This document shows positions 43,317 through 53,906 of a stretch of DNA of 64,000 nt, in pieces. The stretch is taken from the NCBI GenBank assembly GCA_965112635.1, contig OZ218778.1, positions 437,807 to 501,806 of the forward strand, written 5' to 3'. The stretch is from an uncultured bacterium (GTDB taxonomy: Bacteria > Oederibacteriota > Oederibacteriia > Oederibacteriales > Oederibacteriaceae). A program made the position numbers and the translations under genes. The notes below the pieces were generated by a model. That model made no database searches. It was given only the letters and a program-made list of their open reading frames with translations, and was not told the DNA's origin. Numbering within the stretch: the stretch's first letter is position 1; each line of letters opens with the position of its first letter.

Positions 43317-43628
43317 ATGGGAAAAATGCCTGTTCAAATTACCGTTGACGACAAAAAAATAGCCGATTTCTGCGTGCGGAACCATATCAGGAAACTATCC
43401 TTTTTCGGATCGGTGTTGGAGGAAAAATTCAGGCCGGACAGCGATATTGACGTTTTGTTGGAATTCGATACCCAATATCCTGTTGGTTTCAGGATCATTG
43501 ACATGGAAGAAGAGCTTTCCCGTCTGTTGGACGGCCACAGGGTGGATATTGTAAATGCTAAATACCTTAATCCCCGCATGAGGAACAATGTGTTGGCCGG
43601 GGCGGAAATGCACTATGCCCAGGGATGA
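43317..43628 (+). CDS. Minimal nucleotidyltransferase (MNT) antitoxin of a HepT/MNT module
   Basis: Pol-beta-type NTase motif GS...DSDIDVLLEF. Confidence 0.8.
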   Translation: MGKMPVQITVDDKKIADFCVRNHIRKLSFFGSVLEEKFRPDSDIDVLLEFDTQYPVGFRIIDMEEELSRLLDGHRVDIVNAKYLNPRMRNNVLAGAEMHYAQG

Positions 43629-43953
43629 AATGATTTATCTGGGGCATATGCTGGATATGACCCAAAAGGCGGTTGATTCGCTAAGAGGAAAATCCCGTGC
43701 CGATTATGATGGGGATGAAATTCTAAGACTGGCCTTGGCTCACCTGGTGCAGACCATCGGAGAAGCAGCTTCCCACGTGTCAAAAGATACTCACGCGAAA
43801 TACCCCAATATCCCATGGAAAAAAATTATCGGGATGCGGCACAAAGTCGTTCACGACTATATGTATGTGGATTATGACATCCTGTGGGACGTTGTTTCCA
43901 TTGAGCTTCCCGCCATTATTCCTCAACTCAAAAAAACATTGGGCATTAATTAA
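43615..43953 (+). CDS. HepT-like (DUF86) toxin, HEPN RNase
   Basis: Overlaps the MNT gene by 14 nt. DUF86/HepT conservation includes an Rx4HxY-type motif (RHKVVHDY). Confidence 0.8.
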   Translation: MPRDEMIYLGHMLDMTQKAVDSLRGKSRADYDGDEILRLALAHLVQTIGEAASHVSKDTHAKYPNIPWKKIIGMRHKVVHDYMYVDYDILWDVVSIELPAIIPQLKKTLGIN

Positions 43954-46359: not shown

Positions 46360-47076
46360 CTACCTAGAGTTTTGTGGTATGCCCTGATTAGCGGGAGCTG
46401 GTGGTCTTAACTGGGGACCATTAAGAACAGCATCCACAAACCGATTCCTTGTTAAAGCGACAATAATTGCATTTCCATCCTTACGGTCAGGATGCAATTG
46501 CCAGAGAACATTTCGCTTTTGATCCTGGTCATACTTTAATACAAACCCCAGAAAATCGAAAAACACCGACACTCGGCTATTGAGCCAGGCGACAGGAAGG
46601 CATTTTTCAGGATTGGGAACTAAGTAATAATCAATCTTGTTTGTGCGTTTAAAACTACCAAAACCCTTTTGAAAACGAGGATAGTCTCTCTTTAGCCGCG
46701 TCCCATCAACAACCCATGCCATTTTTCCATAGAAAGCCTCACGGCTTTGCACCTCACTAGCCTTGATCGCAGAATGCTGAAATTCTATTACGAACCCATT
46801 CTTAGCCTTTATATCTGCAATATGTTTTTCTCCAGTTGTATCTGTATGGATTACCTCCTGCCAATTATCAGGAAAATGTTCTTTCCATTTTCTGTGCCAC
46901 TCTGTTTCATTTTCCCACCAATGATCACAGTCTGCGGTTCTTTTGTGAGCCCAATGCCAGACCTTTACCAGCCCGCACTTGGCGATCATTTCACTTTCGC
47001 AATATCTGCAAGTACCCCGCAGCCCTCGCTGAGCCTCTACCTTGTTTCCATTTACCTTAGCAAATTTCATATTCAT
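46360..47076 (-). CDS. CoiA-like family protein (competence protein CoiA-like; predicted Zn-finger plus nuclease-fold domain)
   Basis: CRYCESEM...C Zn-ribbon, then HWAHKR...H...E...DIKAKNGFVIEFQHSAI, which matches the CoiA-like domain pattern (HFAH...iEfQ.S). First gene of the AT-rich island. Confidence 0.6.
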   Translation of the reverse strand: MNMKFAKVNGNKVEAQRGLRGTCRYCESEMIAKCGLVKVWHWAHKRTADCDHWWENETEWHRKWKEHFPDNWQEVIHTDTTGEKHIADIKAKNGFVIEFQHSAIKASEVQSREAFYGKMAWVVDGTRLKRDYPRFQKGFGSFKRTNKIDYYLVPNPEKCLPVAWLNSRVSVFFDFLGFVLKYDQDQKRNVLWQLHPDRKDGNAIIVALTRNRFVDAVLNGPQLRPPAPANQGIPQNSR

Positions 47077-47105: not shown

Positions 47106-47276
47106 TTACTTTTGCGAACCGTTTTTTTCTAATAATGAACGGATATTTTTTAAATGCTCTTCTATTTTATCTAACTTGAAATACCAAAGGACAATGCTTC
47201 GAAAAATATAAAACAATGAAATCATAATAGCCAAAACTATAATAAAAGCTACTAAGTAGGCCACCGCATCAACCAT
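47106..47276 (-). CDS. Small (56 aa) single-TM peptide with a perfect Shine-Dalgarno sequence; not in the ORF track because it is shorter than 60 aa
   Basis: GGAGGATTTT-ATG, then MVDAVAYLVAFIIVLAIMISLFYIFRSIVLWYFKLDKIEEHLKNIRSLLEKNGSQK, which has one strongly hydrophobic helix. Translated manually. Confidence 0.35.
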   Translation of the reverse strand: MVDAVAYLVAFIIVLAIMISLFYIFRSIVLWYFKLDKIEEHLKNIRSLLEKNGSQK

Positions 47277-47506
47277 AAAATCCTCCTTTAAAATAAAATC
47301 GAAACACCATTAAAACTACATATTGATTTTACGCCCACTGCTATTCCTGTCAAACATTTCACCCAAATATCTATTTCGGCGTTACGGCGATTGCCGAAAC
47401 GCCGAAGGAGATTTGGTAGCGATAAAAGAAGAGGAATTACTGGTTGGGAGTAAAAGGGTGGAAAGAGGCGACTGCTAGACCTTATAACTGAAGACCTGAC
47501 CCCCAT

Positions 47507-48451
47507 TTACAATAATTTTCCTTGGTTTTTATTAGCATATGCTAAATGCCGTAAGTTGTAGAATTGATCCTTTTTAAAATAAATATCCTGACTAATTATT
47601 TGTTTCTTGGATAATTTATTTTTAGGAAAGAAGGATAATCCATATTTTTTATAATACACACTTTTAAAATTAGATGCATTAAACTCCATAATCTGTATTG
47701 GTAATGAGTTTTGCAACATTTTCTCCGCACAGTTACATTTTCCTTGATGTTCCGAGGTATTATCCAATATCTGCCCAAAGGTCCCTGTAATTAAATCTAC
47801 GTACTGAATAATATGACTCTGTTCTTTATATAATGCTTCCTTCTCATGATCCGAATCCACTTCCAATATTTCATGGTTCTCAAATTTGATATGTTCATCA
47901 TTAATAAAAGCTTTAGTGCCAATCTCAAAAATTGGTTTAGTGTGAAAATTGTCCTCAGATTCTCTGGTTTTTGAATCAGAATAAATATTTTTTATTGTTA
48001 CCTTATCAAATCCAGCGGACTTATTTAGAAAAAACCATTTTAAAGCACCATATAATCCTATTTGGAAAAATCTATTATAGATTTTAAAATCCCTGGTTTG
48101 ATTATCATTCCATAAAGATTTATCCACTTTTGTCAAATCTACCCCAAAAAAATAAAAATAACTTGATTTCATATTTTGATTACAAAATAAATTTAACCAT
48201 CTATTTGCCAAATCATTCTGCGTCAGCGTATTGTTCAGCTTATGAAAATGCAATTCTTTGTTCCACGTGCTTTTTTCACGTTGCTGCAAAAGAGAACCAA
48301 CGAATTTGTCTTCTTTATCAAACGGTATAAATAAATAACCGTGATATAACCACGATTTCGATAATATTCTTTCATCATGAAAAACATTGCATTTAATTTC
48401 TTTATTTTGTACAGGAATATTAAAAAGATCCACATTCATTTCAGTAAGCAA
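47507..48451 (-). CDS. Hypothetical 314-aa protein, very AT-rich and Lys/Asn/Phe-rich; no recognisable domain
   Basis: A long uninterrupted ORF in the AT-rich island, immediately downstream of the HerA-like gene in the same orientation. Confidence 0.5.
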   Translation of the reverse strand: MLTEMNVDLFNIPVQNKEIKCNVFHDERILSKSWLYHGYLFIPFDKEDKFVGSLLQQREKSTWNKELHFHKLNNTLTQNDLANRWLNLFCNQNMKSSYFYFFGVDLTKVDKSLWNDNQTRDFKIYNRFFQIGLYGALKWFFLNKSAGFDKVTIKNIYSDSKTRESEDNFHTKPIFEIGTKAFINDEHIKFENHEILEVDSDHEKEALYKEQSHIIQYVDLITGTFGQILDNTSEHQGKCNCAEKMLQNSLPIQIMEFNASNFKSVYYKKYGLSFFPKNKLSKKQIISQDIYFKKDQFYNLRHLAYANKNQGKLL

Positions 48452-48458
48452 CCATGTT

Positions 48459-50153
48459 CTAGTCCTGCTTATAAGCTGGCTTTGGAAAAATAACCTTCAC
48501 TGGCTGACGAAATATTGCATGCTGAACGAGTAGCTCCCCTTTGGTTAATCTTGTCACCGAAGACTTTAATTCCTGTTCTAAAAATCGGTAATCCGGTTGC
48601 ATGATTTCGCTTGATGTACTACGTCCAATTATTTTTGTTGCGGCATTTCCGGTCACGCGTGGATGCACGGCACTCAAAAACTGTTGGGCTGAAAGCAAAA
48701 TAACACCAAGAGACCGGCCACGTTCTGATATATCAAGTATCTGTTCAATAAGTGGAGATTCCTTACCACCGGAAGGTGCGTATTTATTGAGCTCGTCTAC
48801 AAAAATCAATACTTTCTTGGGAAGATTAAGTGTTTCATCAGACTCTGCAAACATTTCATAAATATTTCGTATCACATCTCCGAAAACGAAAGCCTGTTCA
48901 TGATCTAGTAATTTTGCTATATCAATAACATATGTATGTCCGCCTTCTATTTTATGTATTTCATCTGCCAGGTGGTGCTCTAGACGTGTGCGACGGTCCG
49001 TAAAAAGACCCGTAGTACGCGTCTTTACCATTCGGCGAAGGTGTCTCCGAAACTTACCGACAGAACTGGGTTTTATGTCACCTATTCCTTGGGATTTTCC
49101 AGAATCAGCAAGAGGATATCCGTCCAGAAGGCTACTCCAATCCTGAACTTTAGCAAACGGTGATTTCGCTGTCTTATTCATTAAACCGCTCGATATTTCT
49201 CCTATAAGGGAATCAATAGTTTCTGTTGGATCAGGAATGCTGGAAAATAGTAAATCCAGCTTATCCGCAGAGTCATTTAATTCATAAGCATAAACTTTGT
49301 GTTGATTTGGCCTGACAAAACTATTGGCCTCTCCATTTTTAGCTCGAGGCAAATAGTAATGGACATTCTGAAATGGTTTTGGCTCTAACCCAAGACGCAG
49401 CCAAAGACCCTTTTGCTCTTCACTTAAATCTTTTGGCGGCTCATCAATCTTAAGCAAATCTCCATGCTTAACATTTAAAATGATAACAGCGACTTCCGAT
49501 GATTCAATTTTTTGAATAATAGACTGTAGTAAAAACATTGCATAACTTGTTTTAGTAGCCAGCCCACTAATCCCTGAAATATTGACGTGAGCCGATTCGG
49601 GACCGATTACATAATCTTTATCAAGATAAACTACTGCCTCAACATCGTTACTCATTTTAATTAGTCCGGCAGGGATCCGATTCTCTTGTTTCATAGTGTC
49701 TATTCCTAAAGCCGCATGGATGCCTGACTCGTCAGCAAACCGAACATTTCTTTCATTTTCAATGGGCATGTAGATTCCATCTTTAGTTGTTCCATCAGAA
49801 TTTTTGCCACCGCCGTCATTCATCATAACGTTAGCTTTAGCAAGAGTTGCTCCCACCCGTGGCGTATTTGGCTCTTCCGCAACTGATCCAAAATTATTTG
49901 ACACAAAATTCGCGAGATGACTTGCAGCGTCCGTCCTGTGCTCCAGACCAGCGATTAGCCCATATGTTTTACTTCCGTTAAAATGTTCCGATTCAACAAT
50001 GTCAAAAGGATTTACAAGAACATTCGCAGTTATCCAGAAATTAAACTTGTCGGCTGTAGTTGGTTCCTTGTCTGTCGCTGATGTCCTCCCGATTATCGGA
50101 TTTTCTTTCTTATCACTCATATACGCTACCTCCTCAAAGCAGAATTTATACAA
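48459..50153 (-). CDS. HerA/FtsK-superfamily-like P-loop ATPase (tentative)
   Basis: Deviant Walker A region (NISGISGLATKTS), Walker B hhhhDE (VLIFVDELNKY) and a downstream Arg-containing segment (ERGRSLGVILLSAQQ); 564 aa. Overlaps the upstream NurA-like gene by 28 nt. Confidence 0.5.
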   Translation of the reverse strand: MYKFCFEEVAYMSDKKENPIIGRTSATDKEPTTADKFNFWITANVLVNPFDIVESEHFNGSKTYGLIAGLEHRTDAASHLANFVSNNFGSVAEEPNTPRVGATLAKANVMMNDGGGKNSDGTTKDGIYMPIENERNVRFADESGIHAALGIDTMKQENRIPAGLIKMSNDVEAVVYLDKDYVIGPESAHVNISGISGLATKTSYAMFLLQSIIQKIESSEVAVIILNVKHGDLLKIDEPPKDLSEEQKGLWLRLGLEPKPFQNVHYYLPRAKNGEANSFVRPNQHKVYAYELNDSADKLDLLFSSIPDPTETIDSLIGEISSGLMNKTAKSPFAKVQDWSSLLDGYPLADSGKSQGIGDIKPSSVGKFRRHLRRMVKTRTTGLFTDRRTRLEHHLADEIHKIEGGHTYVIDIAKLLDHEQAFVFGDVIRNIYEMFAESDETLNLPKKVLIFVDELNKYAPSGGKESPLIEQILDISERGRSLGVILLSAQQFLSAVHPRVTGNAATKIIGRSTSSEIMQPDYRFLEQELKSSVTRLTKGELLVQHAIFRQPVKVIFPKPAYKQD

Positions 50154-51253
50154 CCTTGGATAACTTCCGTAGAAAAGAACAACTGTTTTGAAGCATGTTC
50201 AGCTTGATAGATAGGGTAAAGATGAGAATGCCAACGATCATCTGATCCATAAGGGGTCACAAATCGCTCTGCGAGTAAGGCTCCTGATATTTGATCCAAA
50301 AGCTCTGTTGTTAAAGGTTGTTCTTCAAGAATAGGAATCTCTACCTTTATTACGCCAAATAAGGGGTATAAAACCTGCTGTGATTTCCTTAATCTTAAAT
50401 ACCAGAATGCAGTTTTGCCCCCATATCCTTCATACGCAGCAGTTCGATTATTTTGTGGCAGATTACCAAGTAAGGAAACTACGCTCTCACTCTGCCTAGC
50501 TTTACCTTGCTGAGAATAAAATTTTTGTACAGTTGTAAAATTTTTTGCTACTCCAATTACCTTGGGGCTTTGCATGCCACCGCCAAAATGACCGAAGGAG
50601 ACAAGACCATCCTTTAAAAGCCATCCATCGGGAACCTTATCACGAAATTCTTTAGCAATTTCAAACTCCATGGTGCTCATCAAATGTCTTGTTTTGCTCC
50701 TTCCCCTTTCTCTTAAATCCTGCGTTTCCAGGAATTCACCGCTAAGGGCATCAAGTTCAATTAAATCTTTAATAATAATATTTACCCCTGCATCTTTAGT
50801 TGAGTCTTGTATTTTTTGCCACGCCAACTCTGATACTCTTGATTTAGCTATCAAAAGAAACCACTGATGTCTCTTGAAAACAGAAGTTAACCTTCCCTCA
50901 CCACTACGTTTTAAAATAGTAACTGATATTTGAGAAAGGAATATCGGGGTTGCGCGGTCATGTTCAAGGCCGGTTGCCAGAAAATAATGCCGGTAGGAGC
51001 CGTCGAGAAAATACCTGAAAAAATGATTTTGTTCTCTAGTTATTGGCTGTAGTTCCTTGTATTTCCATGTTGGTTTGGGAACTTCAAGTAAAGAATCAAT
51101 TTGCAGGTGATCGCCAACGAGTTTAGTGTCATCCCTTTCTTCTTCTCCAACAAAGGTCATTTCCTCAGTAGCTCCCCCACTAGCGGGAAGTAGCTCTAGT
51201 TGATTAGAAACAACAGACATAATTGATTTAAGGGTACTTACAAATTCCCTCAC
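50126..51253 (-). CDS. NurA-like nuclease (tentative)
   Basis: 375 aa with a NurA-like first catalytic motif (FLDGSYRHYF). An overlapping operon arrangement with a HerA-like ATPase is typical of NurA-HerA pairs. Confidence 0.45.
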   Translation of the reverse strand: MREFVSTLKSIMSVVSNQLELLPASGGATEEMTFVGEEERDDTKLVGDHLQIDSLLEVPKPTWKYKELQPITREQNHFFRYFLDGSYRHYFLATGLEHDRATPIFLSQISVTILKRSGEGRLTSVFKRHQWFLLIAKSRVSELAWQKIQDSTKDAGVNIIIKDLIELDALSGEFLETQDLRERGRSKTRHLMSTMEFEIAKEFRDKVPDGWLLKDGLVSFGHFGGGMQSPKVIGVAKNFTTVQKFYSQQGKARQSESVVSLLGNLPQNNRTAAYEGYGGKTAFWYLRLRKSQQVLYPLFGVIKVEIPILEEQPLTTELLDQISGALLAERFVTPYGSDDRWHSHLYPIYQAEHASKQLFFSTEVIQGCINSALRR

Positions 51254-51758
51254 CTATCCTCCAAACTTAAATTTACTTCCTTTAATTCGTCCTTATTTAT
51301 ACCCCATATATCTGACGCAATCTCATTGATCTGGTCCTCATATTCACTTACATTTATTCCAGACATAACCTTGTCATGACATATTTTCGAGAGTCTTGCC
51401 AATTCTTGGTGAGCTTCTAAAATTTTAGTAAATTTAGGTATTTTTATTTTTTCCAAAATGTGAGTACTCTGTGATGTAGATATTGTGTAAGACCGAACAA
51501 TTAGTCTAGTAATAGACGAATTTAATAGCGCACACAAATAATGAGCTTCTATTTCATCTTGAATATCAACCATCATAAGTTTATGATCTGGAATAATTGT
51601 TTTACCATTTAATTCGGAAATAACAGCACATTCAAACTCTGAAGATTGTTCCTTCCAAACAACCTTAAACGGACTAAATGTATACGGTCCAATATTATAA
51701 ATAGCGTATGACCTGCCCCCATTCTTTGTACCACTTGTTAAGTTAGAGTTAAGCAGCA
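51250..51758 (-). pseudogene. C-terminal fragment of an N6-adenine DNA methyltransferase (TaqI_C/Eco57I-type target-recognition region), truncated at its 5' side by the IS3 insertion
   Basis: ...FKVVWKEQSSEFECAVISELNGKTIIPDHKLMMVDIQDEIEAHYLCALLNSSITRLIV... has the hallmark LLNS motif of the TaqI_C domain. The track ORF's first ~45 codons (51759-51897) lie inside the IS end and are spurious. Confidence 0.5.
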
Positions 51759-52465
51759 TGACATAGGGCAATGCAAGGTTGCAGCAACCTTGCTTCCGGA
51801 GCTGGTGGCCGATACCCCAGTGAGCTATGCGGTCTTTTTGTATTGTACTCCTTCCTCCAGTTTTCGATAACATACTTTGCCTCCCACAGATTATCAAATA
51901 TTTCTCCGGCTAAGACCTCGTCCCTGAGTTTCCCATTAAAAGACTCGCAGTATCCGTTCTCCCACGGACTTCCAGGTTCGATAAATAAAGTCTTAACGCC
52001 GATATTACCCAGCCAACCTCTGATCATTTCTGAAGTAAACTCGCTTCCGTTATCCGACCTGATGTACTCAGGAATACCTCTACTGATGAATAGATCCATC
52101 AAACATTCCTGAACATCATCCGCCTTGAGACTTCTTCCCACTACCAGAGCCAGGCACTCCCTGGTGTATTCGTCTATCACGGTCAAGATCCGGAACGCTC
52201 GTCCTTCGCTTGTTCTATCCTTTACAAAATCATAGCTCCAGACATGGTCCTTATGATCTGGCCTTAATCTGACACAGGAGCCGTCGTTGAACCACAGACG
52301 CCTTCTTTTACGCTGCTTCTTCGGTATTTTTAGCGCTTCCTGTCTCCATATTCGCTCAACTTTCTTGTGATTAACCAGCCATCCCTCATCTCTGAGCATT
52401 GCCGTAATCCTACGATATCCGTAACGGCCATACTGGTTGGCCAGATTGATGATAGTTTCTGCCAA
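51749..52465 (-). CDS. IS3-family transposase OrfB (rve integrase core), 5'-truncated/separated from orfA by the IS256 insertion
   Basis: YGYRRITAMLR...HKDHVWSYDFV...IDEYTRECLA...E DDE-type integrase core. Confidence 0.85.
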   Translation of the reverse strand: MAETIINLANQYGRYGYRRITAMLRDEGWLVNHKKVERIWRQEALKIPKKQRKRRRLWFNDGSCVRLRPDHKDHVWSYDFVKDRTSEGRAFRILTVIDEYTRECLALVVGRSLKADDVQECLMDLFISRGIPEYIRSDNGSEFTSEMIRGWLGNIGVKTLFIEPGSPWENGYCESFNGKLRDEVLAGEIFDNLWEAKYVIENWRKEYNTKRPHSSLGYRPPAPEARLLQPCIALCHAA

Positions 52466-52585: not shown

Positions 52586-53906
52586 TAAGTCCACGGGCGT
52601 AGACTAGGTGATTGCTTAGGTCACCAAACCCAAAATAAAAGGAGGTCTACACCCGTGAAGTCATTATCCCAAAGAATTGAGATTTATACGAATCAGAAAA
52701 TCAGAGAAAAAGTCAGAAAGATCGCACAGCCCGGTGTCGCTCTGGAAGTAATTGGCCAGGAGGTCAATGCCATCATTGCCCAGGCTTTAGATATTCAACT
52801 GGAGGCTGAAAGGGACGAGTTTTTGGGCCGTCAGCCTTATGAACGCCTTGAAAACAGCCCTAAAAGAAACGGTTTTAAATCCACCTCTGTCCCCGGCTTT
52901 TTTGGCAGACTTTTTCTGCACAAACCAGCTCTACGCCAGGGGTCCCTTCACTCGCCCTTGCTTACCGCCCTCAAACAAGCTGGAAAAGGCCTGGCTTCCT
53001 TCCTCGCCATCCGCTTCTGGCTCAAAGGCGCTGCCACTCGCTCTACCGCCGCTGAGATAAATGCCGCTTTGGGCACAAAGCTCTCTCACTCCACCGTCTC
53101 CACTCTCACCAACGCCTTGGAGCCAGCCATCCGTCAGTGGATGAATCGTCCCATTCCTCCCAACATCACCTACCTGCTCCTGGACGCCGCCTACCTGCCT
53201 GTCAGAAGACCTGGTTTTACCTCCAAACAAGCTCTATTGCTCGCCCTAGGCATGGATTCCTTTGGCAATCGCCATGTCCTGGGTTTCCTTCTCGGCGATA
53301 GAGAGTCCTTGGACTCCTGGCAGGCTTTTATCAATGACCTCCTCAAAAGAGGCCTTAACCGCAACACCCTCAGGCTCGTCATCTCCGATGAACACAAGGC
53401 CATTGAGCAGGCCGTCAAAAACCTCCTGGCTGTCCCTCACCAGCTCTGCCTGGTCCACAAGATCCGAAACCTCAGAGCCATTATGCCTCGCCGTGACTGG
53501 GGTGCCTTCCTTAACGATTTCAAAGCTATCTATTGGGCCGATTCCCGCAAACTGGCTCTCCAGGCCTTTGGCCGCCTCCAAGCTCGCTGGATGAAACTCT
53601 ATCCTAGAGCTACGGCTATGGCTCTCGATAGGTTCGACAACCTCACCACCTTCATGAACGAACCCCAGCATGTCTGGCGCACTCTCCGCTCCAGCAATCT
53701 CATCGAACGCTTTATCGCCGAGATCAAACGGCGCACCCGTGCTGCCGGCACCATGCACTCCGAATTGGAGGTCGCTAAGATCGTCTGGTCTGTTTCTACC
53801 ACTCAGGAAGATAATTGGTCTAAAAGAAAACTCTGGAAATCTCAAGGAGGTGATCTGGTTCAGGAAGGCTTGCTAAATGTTGCTTAACCTACTACCCGTG
53901 GACTTA
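52586..53906 (+). mobile_element. IS256-family insertion sequence with imperfect terminal inverted repeats (taagtccacgggCgtagACtagg / cctaCtacccgtggactta)
   Basis: The inverted repeats were found by eye and flank the transposase gene. Confidence 0.65.
52655..53887 (+). CDS. IS256-family (Mutator-like) transposase
   Basis: 410-aa product with the DDE region YLLLDAAYL...VISDEHKAIE...E and IS256-type N-terminal conservation. It starts at GTG. Confidence 0.9.
   Translation: MKSLSQRIEIYTNQKIREKVRKIAQPGVALEVIGQEVNAIIAQALDIQLEAERDEFLGRQPYERLENSPKRNGFKSTSVPGFFGRLFLHKPALRQGSLHSPLLTALKQAGKGLASFLAIRFWLKGAATRSTAAEINAALGTKLSHSTVSTLTNALEPAIRQWMNRPIPPNITYLLLDAAYLPVRRPGFTSKQALLLALGMDSFGNRHVLGFLLGDRESLDSWQAFINDLLKRGLNRNTLRLVISDEHKAIEQAVKNLLAVPHQLCLVHKIRNLRAIMPRRDWGAFLNDFKAIYWADSRKLALQAFGRLQARWMKLYPRATAMALDRFDNLTTFMNEPQHVWRTLRSSNLIERFIAEIKRRTRAAGTMHSELEVAKIVWSVSTTQEDNWSKRKLWKSQGGDLVQEGLLNVA

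Follow-up and report, generated by a model that had tools for sequence, protein, structure and literature searches.

We analysed a 64-kb stretch of DNA from an uncultured bacterium (henceforth the window) and find that the open reading frame (ORF) at 47507-48451 of its minus strand, which we call gene X, encodes what appears from transitive homology and predicted fold to be a divergent member of the DUF3800 superfamily, probably a stand-alone, Mg2+/Mn2+-dependent nuclease with an RNase H2-like fold. By our own count, about 11 of the 17 independent informative loci of the close family (at least 45% identity to gene X, window included) adjoin a restriction or methyltransferase gene. In the window, gene X follows a methyltransferase remnant, a NurA-like gene and a HerA-like gene, and its linkage to HerA is peculiar to this genome. 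We therefore favour, with moderate confidence, the view that gene X is a DUF3800 RNase H-like nuclease that would act as a modular accessory or backup effector of methylation-based defence operons, and not a core subunit of a NurA/HerA system.

Identity and family of gene X

The preliminary description of this ORF, which left its strand unstated, had noted a long coding sequence with an extreme AT bias, a K/N/F/Y-rich product and a position immediately downstream of a HerA-like gene in the same orientation, all of which proved accurate. Gene X has a GC content of 0.286 (0.273 at third codon positions, GC3), whereas the window as a whole has 0.477 and the three genes upstream have 0.36-0.41. 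Its product contains 11.3% K, 9.4% N, 8.7% F and 4.8% Y (34% together), and it starts 7-19 nt after the stop of the HerA-like gene (48459) on the same strand. Translation from a TTG at 48451 would yield 314 residues and from an ATG at 48439 310 residues (MNVDLF...), and public gene calls include one of each length. Since 34 homologues begin with M..DLFG when aligned with gene X, the ATG appears to be the likelier start.

A word-indexed search returned 60 close homologues at E<=1e-3, most of them some 310 residues long with an identity of about 50% across their whole length, and none with an informative name. A family profile built from 35 of these close homologues and searched against 1.84 billion representatives retrieved 553 clusters at E<=1e-3, 155 of them at E<=1e-30. 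These relatives establish that gene X is not a chance ORF. The family is nevertheless rare, patchy and cellular, since only six loci were found among one genome each of 185,579 species, all in metagenome-assembled genomes (MAGs; Nitrospiraceae, Thermodesulfobacteriota, Scalinduaceae, Brocadiia, Dehalococcoidia and Anaerolineales), and a search of 2.9 million viral contigs gave no relative. On the strength of this viral search we rejected a phage origin, and it leaves no sign of the common phage or plasmid structural gene that the preliminary description had named as the finding that would overturn its proposal.

Taken by itself, gene X matches nothing in Pfam (even at E<=1), NCBIfam, PADLOC, PHROG or the sequences of the PDB. 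Its relatives are more informative. Among 124 distant relatives retrieved by the profile of the gene X clade at E<=1e-31, 42 match PF12686 (DUF3800; best 1.4e-9), and 65 match the PADLOC candidate PDC-M04A (PDLC04353/04354; best E 8.3e-10). One relative, P0060 (E 1.9e-9 to gene X), carries PF12686. Gene X and its clade of about 50% identity escape the Pfam model. A profile of the 124 relatives returned nothing meaningful from the PDB sequences.

DUF3800 proteins are characterized by an N-terminal DE and a C-terminal QxxD motif and by structural similarity to RNase H2 (PMC7736814), and the domain has been described as an RNase H fold "with a catalytic rearrangement" (PMC10910872). Both motifs are nearly invariant among the 124 relatives (D22 in 124, E23 in 123, Q212 in 121 and D215 in 124), and two further acidic positions are conserved (D155, with 105 D and 12 E; D197, with 92 D and 21 N). 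All of these residues are present in gene X, which on this basis looks catalytically competent. Thus, the earlier statement that the protein has no recognisable motif holds for the library searches, but not for the D22-E23 and Q212-x-x-D215 hallmarks of DUF3800.

Predicted fold and putative active site

The AlphaFold2 model of gene X is of high confidence (predicted local distance difference test, pLDDT, 91.4; predicted template modelling score, pTM, 0.90) and depicts a single-domain protein of 310 residues in which no sensor domain is evident. When the PDB was searched with Foldseek, the best folds were all RNase HII, H2 or H3, led by 1eke (E 1.6e-4, probability 1.0) and followed by 3vn5, 3p83 and 3puf. 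Among viral structures (BFVD), gene X came closest to a phage protein that is uncharacterised and to one named as DUF3800 domain-containing (E 8.1e-6, template modelling score, TM, 0.47/0.58). Sequence searches found no solved DUF3800 structure. The putative active site consists of the D22-E23 pair of strand 1, together with D155 (following strand 4), D197 and the helical residues Q212 and D215. The remote-homology comparison recommended in the preliminary description, run here through both profile relatives and predicted-structure matches, thus points to a DUF3800, RNase H2-like protein.

Genomic neighbourhoods of the homologues

The association with restriction-modification (R-M) genes takes several forms in the close family. 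In four Type III loci the X gene lies between mod and res (Mod-X-Res; L001, L009, L018 and L020), and Mod-X arrangements occur at two contig ends (L012 and L027), the start and stop codons overlapping or abutting in each case. Elsewhere, X follows a Type IIG enzyme gene with a 4-nt overlap (L013), an EcoRII-C nuclease gene (L017) or a DUF1156 methyltransferase/DUF499 (BREX-related) system (L010), and the gene of the closest relative, P0004 (56% identity), is overlapped by 8 nt by an N6_N4 methyltransferase gene (L077). Distant relatives were found after a Type IIG gene whose product is homologous to the methyltransferase remnant of the window (L062), beside divergently oriented Type IIG genes (L037 and L044), beside a Type III pair on the opposite strand (L057), and with Lamassu-like SMC ATPases (L040 and L049) or a PDC-M30A-like gene (L029).

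An all-against-all comparison of 298 neighbouring ORFs, lying within 6 kb of gene X homologues at about 60 loci, recovered as recurrent groups Type III Mod, Type III Res, Type IIG enzymes, a LAGLIDADG/HTH protein and a few small unannotated groups. No conserved partner other than R-M genes was seen in this comparison, and the model for the partner gene of PDC-M04 matched none of the 10 neighbours scanned. The sole recurrent non-R-M neighbour with an assigned function is the LAGLIDADG/HTH (homing-endonuclease-like) gene, which lies 37 nt upstream of X at three loci.

The Mod, X and Res proteins are 73, 93 and 86% identical, respectively, between L018 and L020, and 51, 50 and 65% identical between L009 and L018. 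Because the three identities move in parallel, Mod, X and Res have been inherited as a unit over a long divergence. We considered whether X might substitute for a nuclease domain missing from Res and rejected this, since Res keeps weak C-terminal matches to RE_endonuc and to TnsA-like PD-(D/E)xK domains.

One Type III locus (L001, also L002 and L003) contains a frameshifted X homologue whose N-terminal part (~60 codons, with the DE motif among them) lies in another frame; this shifted part overlaps the stop codon of Mod, and both Mod and Res are intact. Since the same 251-residue call was obtained in three samples, an assembly error seems to us less probable than a genuine pseudogene or a programmed shift.

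X homologues are lower in GC, and usually in GC3, than their neighbours at nearly all loci (L001, L004, L009, L013, L014, L018, L020 and the window), even where X co-diverges with Mod and Res. For example, GC3 is 0.40 for X against 0.64 and 0.66 for its neighbours in L001, and 0.29 against 0.56 in L014. Selection for low expression, xenogeneic silencing and a separate origin are possible causes.

Several unrelated loci, the window among them, also carry toxin-antitoxin pairs or fusions of the MNT-HepT type (nucleotidyltransferase/HEPN) a few kb from X, which is consistent with a defence-island setting. Structured noncoding RNAs (ncRNAs) of the DUF3800 type were sought with Rfam: the window gave no match at the gathering score and only chance-level matches around X, and 12 related loci gave only tRNAs.

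The NurA/HerA operon of the window

The ATPase/nuclease pair upstream of gene X, proposed in the preliminary description, is real. The ATPase has weak PADLOC matches to mad8 (2.4e-9) and HerA (2.3e-5) and weak NCBIfam matches to HerA and CedB. It has more than 6755 homologues; among the matches listed, identities are 59-86%, some are named "HerA-like ATPase" at their source, and those of named origin include MAGs of several FCB-group lineages (Zhuqueibacterota, KSB1, Zixibacteria, Ignavibacteria and Bacteroidia). The gene before it encodes a protein whose AlphaFold2 model (pLDDT 83.6) resembles 7f6d_G, the NurA of the Deinococcus radiodurans HerA-NurA complex (E 3.7e-11, TM 0.53/0.59), and TM1739 (1zup, E 2.6e-8). 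Neither the NurA-like nor the HerA-like protein has a significant Pfam match.

At other loci (L070, L071 and L072-L076) these genes form a widespread, tight three-gene operon encoding an Eco57I/MmeI-like methyltransferase of ~1087 residues, a NurA-like protein of 376-380 residues and a HerA-like protein of 553 residues, with the NurA-like gene always between the other two in L070-L076. The module, for which we found no description in the literature, looks like an R-M-type system with NurA-HerA as its restriction module. In the window, the methyltransferase gene has been truncated by insertion sequence (IS) elements, an IS3-type rve fragment and an IS256-like transposase having replaced its missing part, and the defence operon has decayed. 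The remnant lies in a 215-residue ORF that matches PADLOC REase_MTase_IIG (1.7e-47) and Pfam TaqI_C (2.3e-5), and a tblastn search with the L071 methyltransferase found it to be the sole piece of this gene in the whole window.

The preliminary description had suggested that conserved linkage with the HerA-like gene be sought in other genomes, and this linkage is not conserved. Downstream of HerA, L071 has an nSTAND NTPase gene and L072-L076 have a convergent gene, in neither case gene X. In the opposite direction, nothing HerA-like or NurA-like was detected by BLASTP or profile searches among the 298 neighbouring ORFs. As the module occurs elsewhere without X and neither HerA nor NurA occurs near X homologues, the linkage is peculiar to the genome of the window, and gene X is best seen as an accessory appended to a defence operon that has decayed rather than as the sensor that a HerA system lacks.

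Further features of the window and related loci

Gene X is single-copy within the window, and no direct or inverted repeats of note flank it. The hairpin downstream of it has no Rfam match at the gathering score, and the 430-nt region downstream of gene X folds no better than shuffled sequences (z = -1.89, not significant). The 56-residue ORF that follows has an N-terminal hydrophobic helix (MVDAVAYLVAFIIVLAIMISLFYIF...), an upstream AAAGGAGG Shine-Dalgarno sequence, a weak DUF4083 match (E 4e-4) and the best sigma-70-like promoter match of the region; it may code for a small membrane peptide or a toxin-like product. Nothing resembling the next gene, which is CoiA-like, was found among the neighbours of X homologues. 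The window also encodes a protein with a type IX secretion system (T9SS) sorting domain, which, like the taxa of the HerA homologues, hints at a bacterium of the FCB group. Coordinates are collected in Table 1.

Table 1. Positions of gene X, its surroundings in the window and selected features of related loci.
Feature	Sequence	Position	Strand	Remarks
Gene X	window	47507..48439	(-)	310 aa; candidate divergent DUF3800-superfamily protein, predicted RNase H2-like nuclease fold
HerA/FtsK-like P-loop ATPase	window	48459..50120	(-)	553 aa; third gene of the methyltransferase-NurA-HerA module
NurA-like nuclease	window	50126..51253	(-)	375 aa; by structure
Eco57I/MmeI-like (Type IIG-like) methyltransferase remnant	window	51256..51720	(-)	C-terminal ~163 residues, equivalent to residues 923-1085 of ~1087
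Methyltransferase-NurA-HerA module, window copy	window	48459-51897	(-)	
IS3-type transposase fragment (rve integrase core)	window	51749..52465	(-)	abuts truncated methyltransferase; rve_3 9e-28, rve 3.3e-20, HTH_21
IS256-like (Mutator family) transposase	window	52655..53887	(+)	Pfam Transposase_mut 1.5e-70
GC-rich hairpin	window	47362..47419	(-)	~90 nt downstream of gene X; possible operon terminator
Promoter-like site of 56-aa ORF	window	47353-47326		TTGACA-16-TAAAAT, 11/12
56-aa ORF	window	47106-47276	(-)	between gene X and the CoiA-like gene
CoiA-like protein	window	46360-47076	(-)	downstream of gene X; CoiA_N 4.7e-8, CoiA nuclease-like domain 4e-4
MNT-HepT type pair or fusion	window	43317-43953	(+)	genome copy L069
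MNT-HepT type pair or fusion	L001	13447-14176		
MNT-HepT type pair or fusion	L009	6541-7187		
MNT-HepT type pair or fusion	L014	9211-9897		
LAGLIDADG/HTH gene	L006	576-1447		
LAGLIDADG/HTH gene	L022	6077-6949		
LAGLIDADG/HTH gene	L052	559-1323		
Frameshifted X homologue	L001	9820-10756		

Comparison with known nucleases and defence systems

The best fold matches of gene X are enzymes of the RNase HII, RNase H2A and RNase HIII type, with which it shares an adjacent Asp-Glu pair on strand 1, as in the DE motif of RNase HII. It differs from them in showing only 9-15% identity and no sequence-level match, and in having about 90 extra residues. Unlike the universal housekeeping RNase HII/H2, X is sporadic and found in defence islands.

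An extra nuclease inside a restriction operon has a precedent. The anticodon nuclease PrrC, composed of an ABC-ATPase-like domain and a HEPN-type nuclease, sits inside the Type Ic EcoprrI operon, flanked by its modification and restriction genes, and is inherited together with them. By analogy, PrrC could serve as a model for X as a backup effector guarded by an R-M complex. However, the two folds are unrelated, the hosts of X are Type III and Type IIG rather than Type I systems, and the likeness observed is confined to the embedding.

DUF3800 genes are known as accessory or effector genes of type VII retrons and of Cas12a2, V-A2 and VI-F loci (PMC7736814, PMC10910872, PMC12669027). Gene X resembles these in its DE and QxxD motifs, its predicted RNase H2-like fold, its size as a stand-alone protein of ~250-350 residues and its accessory position in an immune locus. 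By contrast, its clade falls below the Pfam model, its partners are of the R-M type and not retrons or CRISPR systems, and it has no TPR or reverse transcriptase fusion. Canonical DUF3800 genes are frequently, though not obligatorily, associated with structured RNAs (11 motifs, DUF3800-I to -XI, besides drum and skipping-rope; PMC5737381), whereas we found no structured ncRNA with X in the window or the 12 related loci. Through the matches of its relatives to PDC-M04A, gene X would be part of a superfamily already flagged as enriched in defence islands, although it does not itself match this candidate model. No mention of PDC-M04A was found in the literature, and literature searches found no functional data for PDC-M04, PF12686, type VII retrons or MADS.

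Auxiliary "backup" nucleases in BREX and BREX-related (DUF499) loci are a theme treated in parts of PMC12839542. The X gene that follows DUF1156/DUF499 genes fits this pattern of nucleases added to methylation-based loci, but the nucleases named in those parts of the source are of the PD-(D/E)XK, HEPN, HNH, TOPRIM, HKD, PIN and Schlafen types, and the terms "RNase H", "RNaseH", "RNH" and "ribonuclease H" do not occur in PMC12839542. Compared with Type III Mod-X-Res loci, the window has a different arrangement, that of a Type IIG-like methyltransferase/NurA/HerA operon. The DUF3800 domain is known. Neither in the papers that mention it nor in our other searches did we find a description of the X clade inserted in operons of the Type III, Type IIG or NurA-HerA methyltransferase kind.

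Discussion

The reading that we favour would have gene X repeatedly recruited to R-M-type operons (Type III, Type IIG, other methyltransferases, EcoRII-like and DUF1156/DUF499). In the window, it would have been added at the 3' end of an Eco57I-like methyltransferase/NurA-like/HerA-like operon, whose methyltransferase would later have been truncated by IS elements. Its role would most likely be that of a second-line or auxiliary effector: it may add cleavage of RNA:DNA hybrids, or of nicked or structured invader nucleic acid, to primary restriction, or it may step in as a fail-safe once the primary system has been inhibited, with PrrC/EcoprrI as the model. The analysis establishes that the gene is real, as well as its family, fold and conserved motifs, its association with defence islands and R-M genes, its co-inheritance with Mod and Res and its independence from HerA and NurA, whereas we infer that it is an active nuclease, what it cleaves, that it works together with the restriction enzyme and that it serves as a backup.

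Several points weigh against this reading. The DUF3800 assignment of gene X rests on transitive homology and fold: gene X itself fails the PF12686 gathering score, no curated model matches it, and the TM values of its PDB fold matches are modest (0.26-0.48 overall, 0.37-0.48 to RNase H2). We found no biochemical or genetic data on DUF3800 in the literature that mentions the family. About a third of the informative close-family loci have no adjoining R-M gene, and here X stands between RadC and YhcG (L004), after MutS (L014), after the LAGLIDADG/HTH gene (L006, L022 and L052) or between NOV_C and DUF2130 (L079); in a further non-R-M context its neighbours are unannotated (L019). Many distant relatives lie beside housekeeping genes, showing that the gene can exist alone. 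In Mod-X-Res loci, the endonuclease-domain matches of Res itself mean that X is not needed as "the" nuclease, the low GC of X relative to its neighbours could mean a separate evolutionary history, and in the window the loss of the methyltransferase partner means that any coupled function may be defunct.

Some of these observations would fit an autonomous, single-gene defence or toxin-like (abortive-infection) nuclease that lodges in islands and operons for co-transcription and co-transfer, a possibility that we consider unlikely but the most serious of the alternatives. Solo loci beside unrelated genes, the GC3 deficit, partners as heterogeneous as Type III, IIG, IIE, BREX-related and NurA-HerA systems, and the candidate status of the related PADLOC model all speak for it. 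Yet the strict interior position between mod and res, with overlapping codons, is kept as the three proteins drift apart in step, their identities falling from >90% to ~50%, which argues for a selected unit and not for repeated chance lodging, and the AlphaFold2 model offers such a nuclease no evident sensor domain.

We regard as improbable that X is a host-protective or regulatory, antitoxin-like nuclease that limits self-damage by restriction or governs expression of the operon, say by clearing RNA:DNA hybrids or processing a transcript. Its position between mod and res, the ncRNA association of canonical DUF3800 genes, and a strain-specific DUF3800 gene scored as essential, alongside antitoxin genes, by transposon sequencing (Tn-seq) in Legionella (bioRxiv 10.1101/2020.10.01.323287) would suit such a role. 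Against this, neither DUF3800-associated nor other Rfam RNAs (tRNAs apart) accompany X or its homologues at the 12 related loci, the frameshifted X beside intact Mod and Res indicates that loss of X is tolerated there, and gene X persists in the window although its methyltransferase is gone.

The preliminary description had proposed that gene X could be a sensor or effector component of the putative ATPase/nuclease system. Its effector half survives in part, since gene X encodes a defence-associated, effector-like predicted RNase H-fold nuclease; its assignment to the HerA system does not, the recurrent partner being a methyltransferase or restriction gene. Position on the same strand within nucleotides of the HerA stop and in the same low-GC island would suit a subunit, and extra effectors are said to be frequent in HerA-based defence systems (PMC12839542). 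The neighbourhood data nevertheless largely refute the proposal and leave it little probability: the module occurs without X, more than 6755 HerA-like homologues stand against 60 close homologues of X, none of the neighbouring ORFs of X homologues encodes HerA or NurA, and gene X is far more AT-rich than the module.

Finally, a selfish mobile cassette (a homing-type element or small transposon) that targets restriction operons and has X as its nuclease is barely credible: the RNase H fold is common to DDE transposases, the GC of X is consistently below its surroundings and LAGLIDADG/HTH genes adjoin it at three loci, but no terminal repeats flank gene X, it is single-copy in the window, X co-diverges with Mod and Res, its best folds are RNase H2/H3 and not transposases or integrases, and only six loci were found in 185,579 species genomes.

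Returning to gene X as an accessory effector, a bolder extension, which we put forward as rather doubtful, is that DUF3800-type nucleases are a plug-in second effector common to retrons, RNA-targeting Cas12/Cas13 systems and R-M systems, and that X is a true third subunit of a Type III-like Mod-X-Res enzyme. If so, X would bring in a type of cleavage not found in classical Type III enzymes, perhaps on RNA:DNA hybrids or R-loops of invading DNA; alternatively, it would trigger abortive infection once restriction is blocked. In the reading that we favour, gene X would extend the idea of a backup effector in a methylation-based defence locus to classical restriction-modification and to an RNase H-fold nuclease, and the X clade, stably placed between mod and res or on methyltransferase operons, would allow the function of DUF3800 to be probed simply, with just two or three genes.

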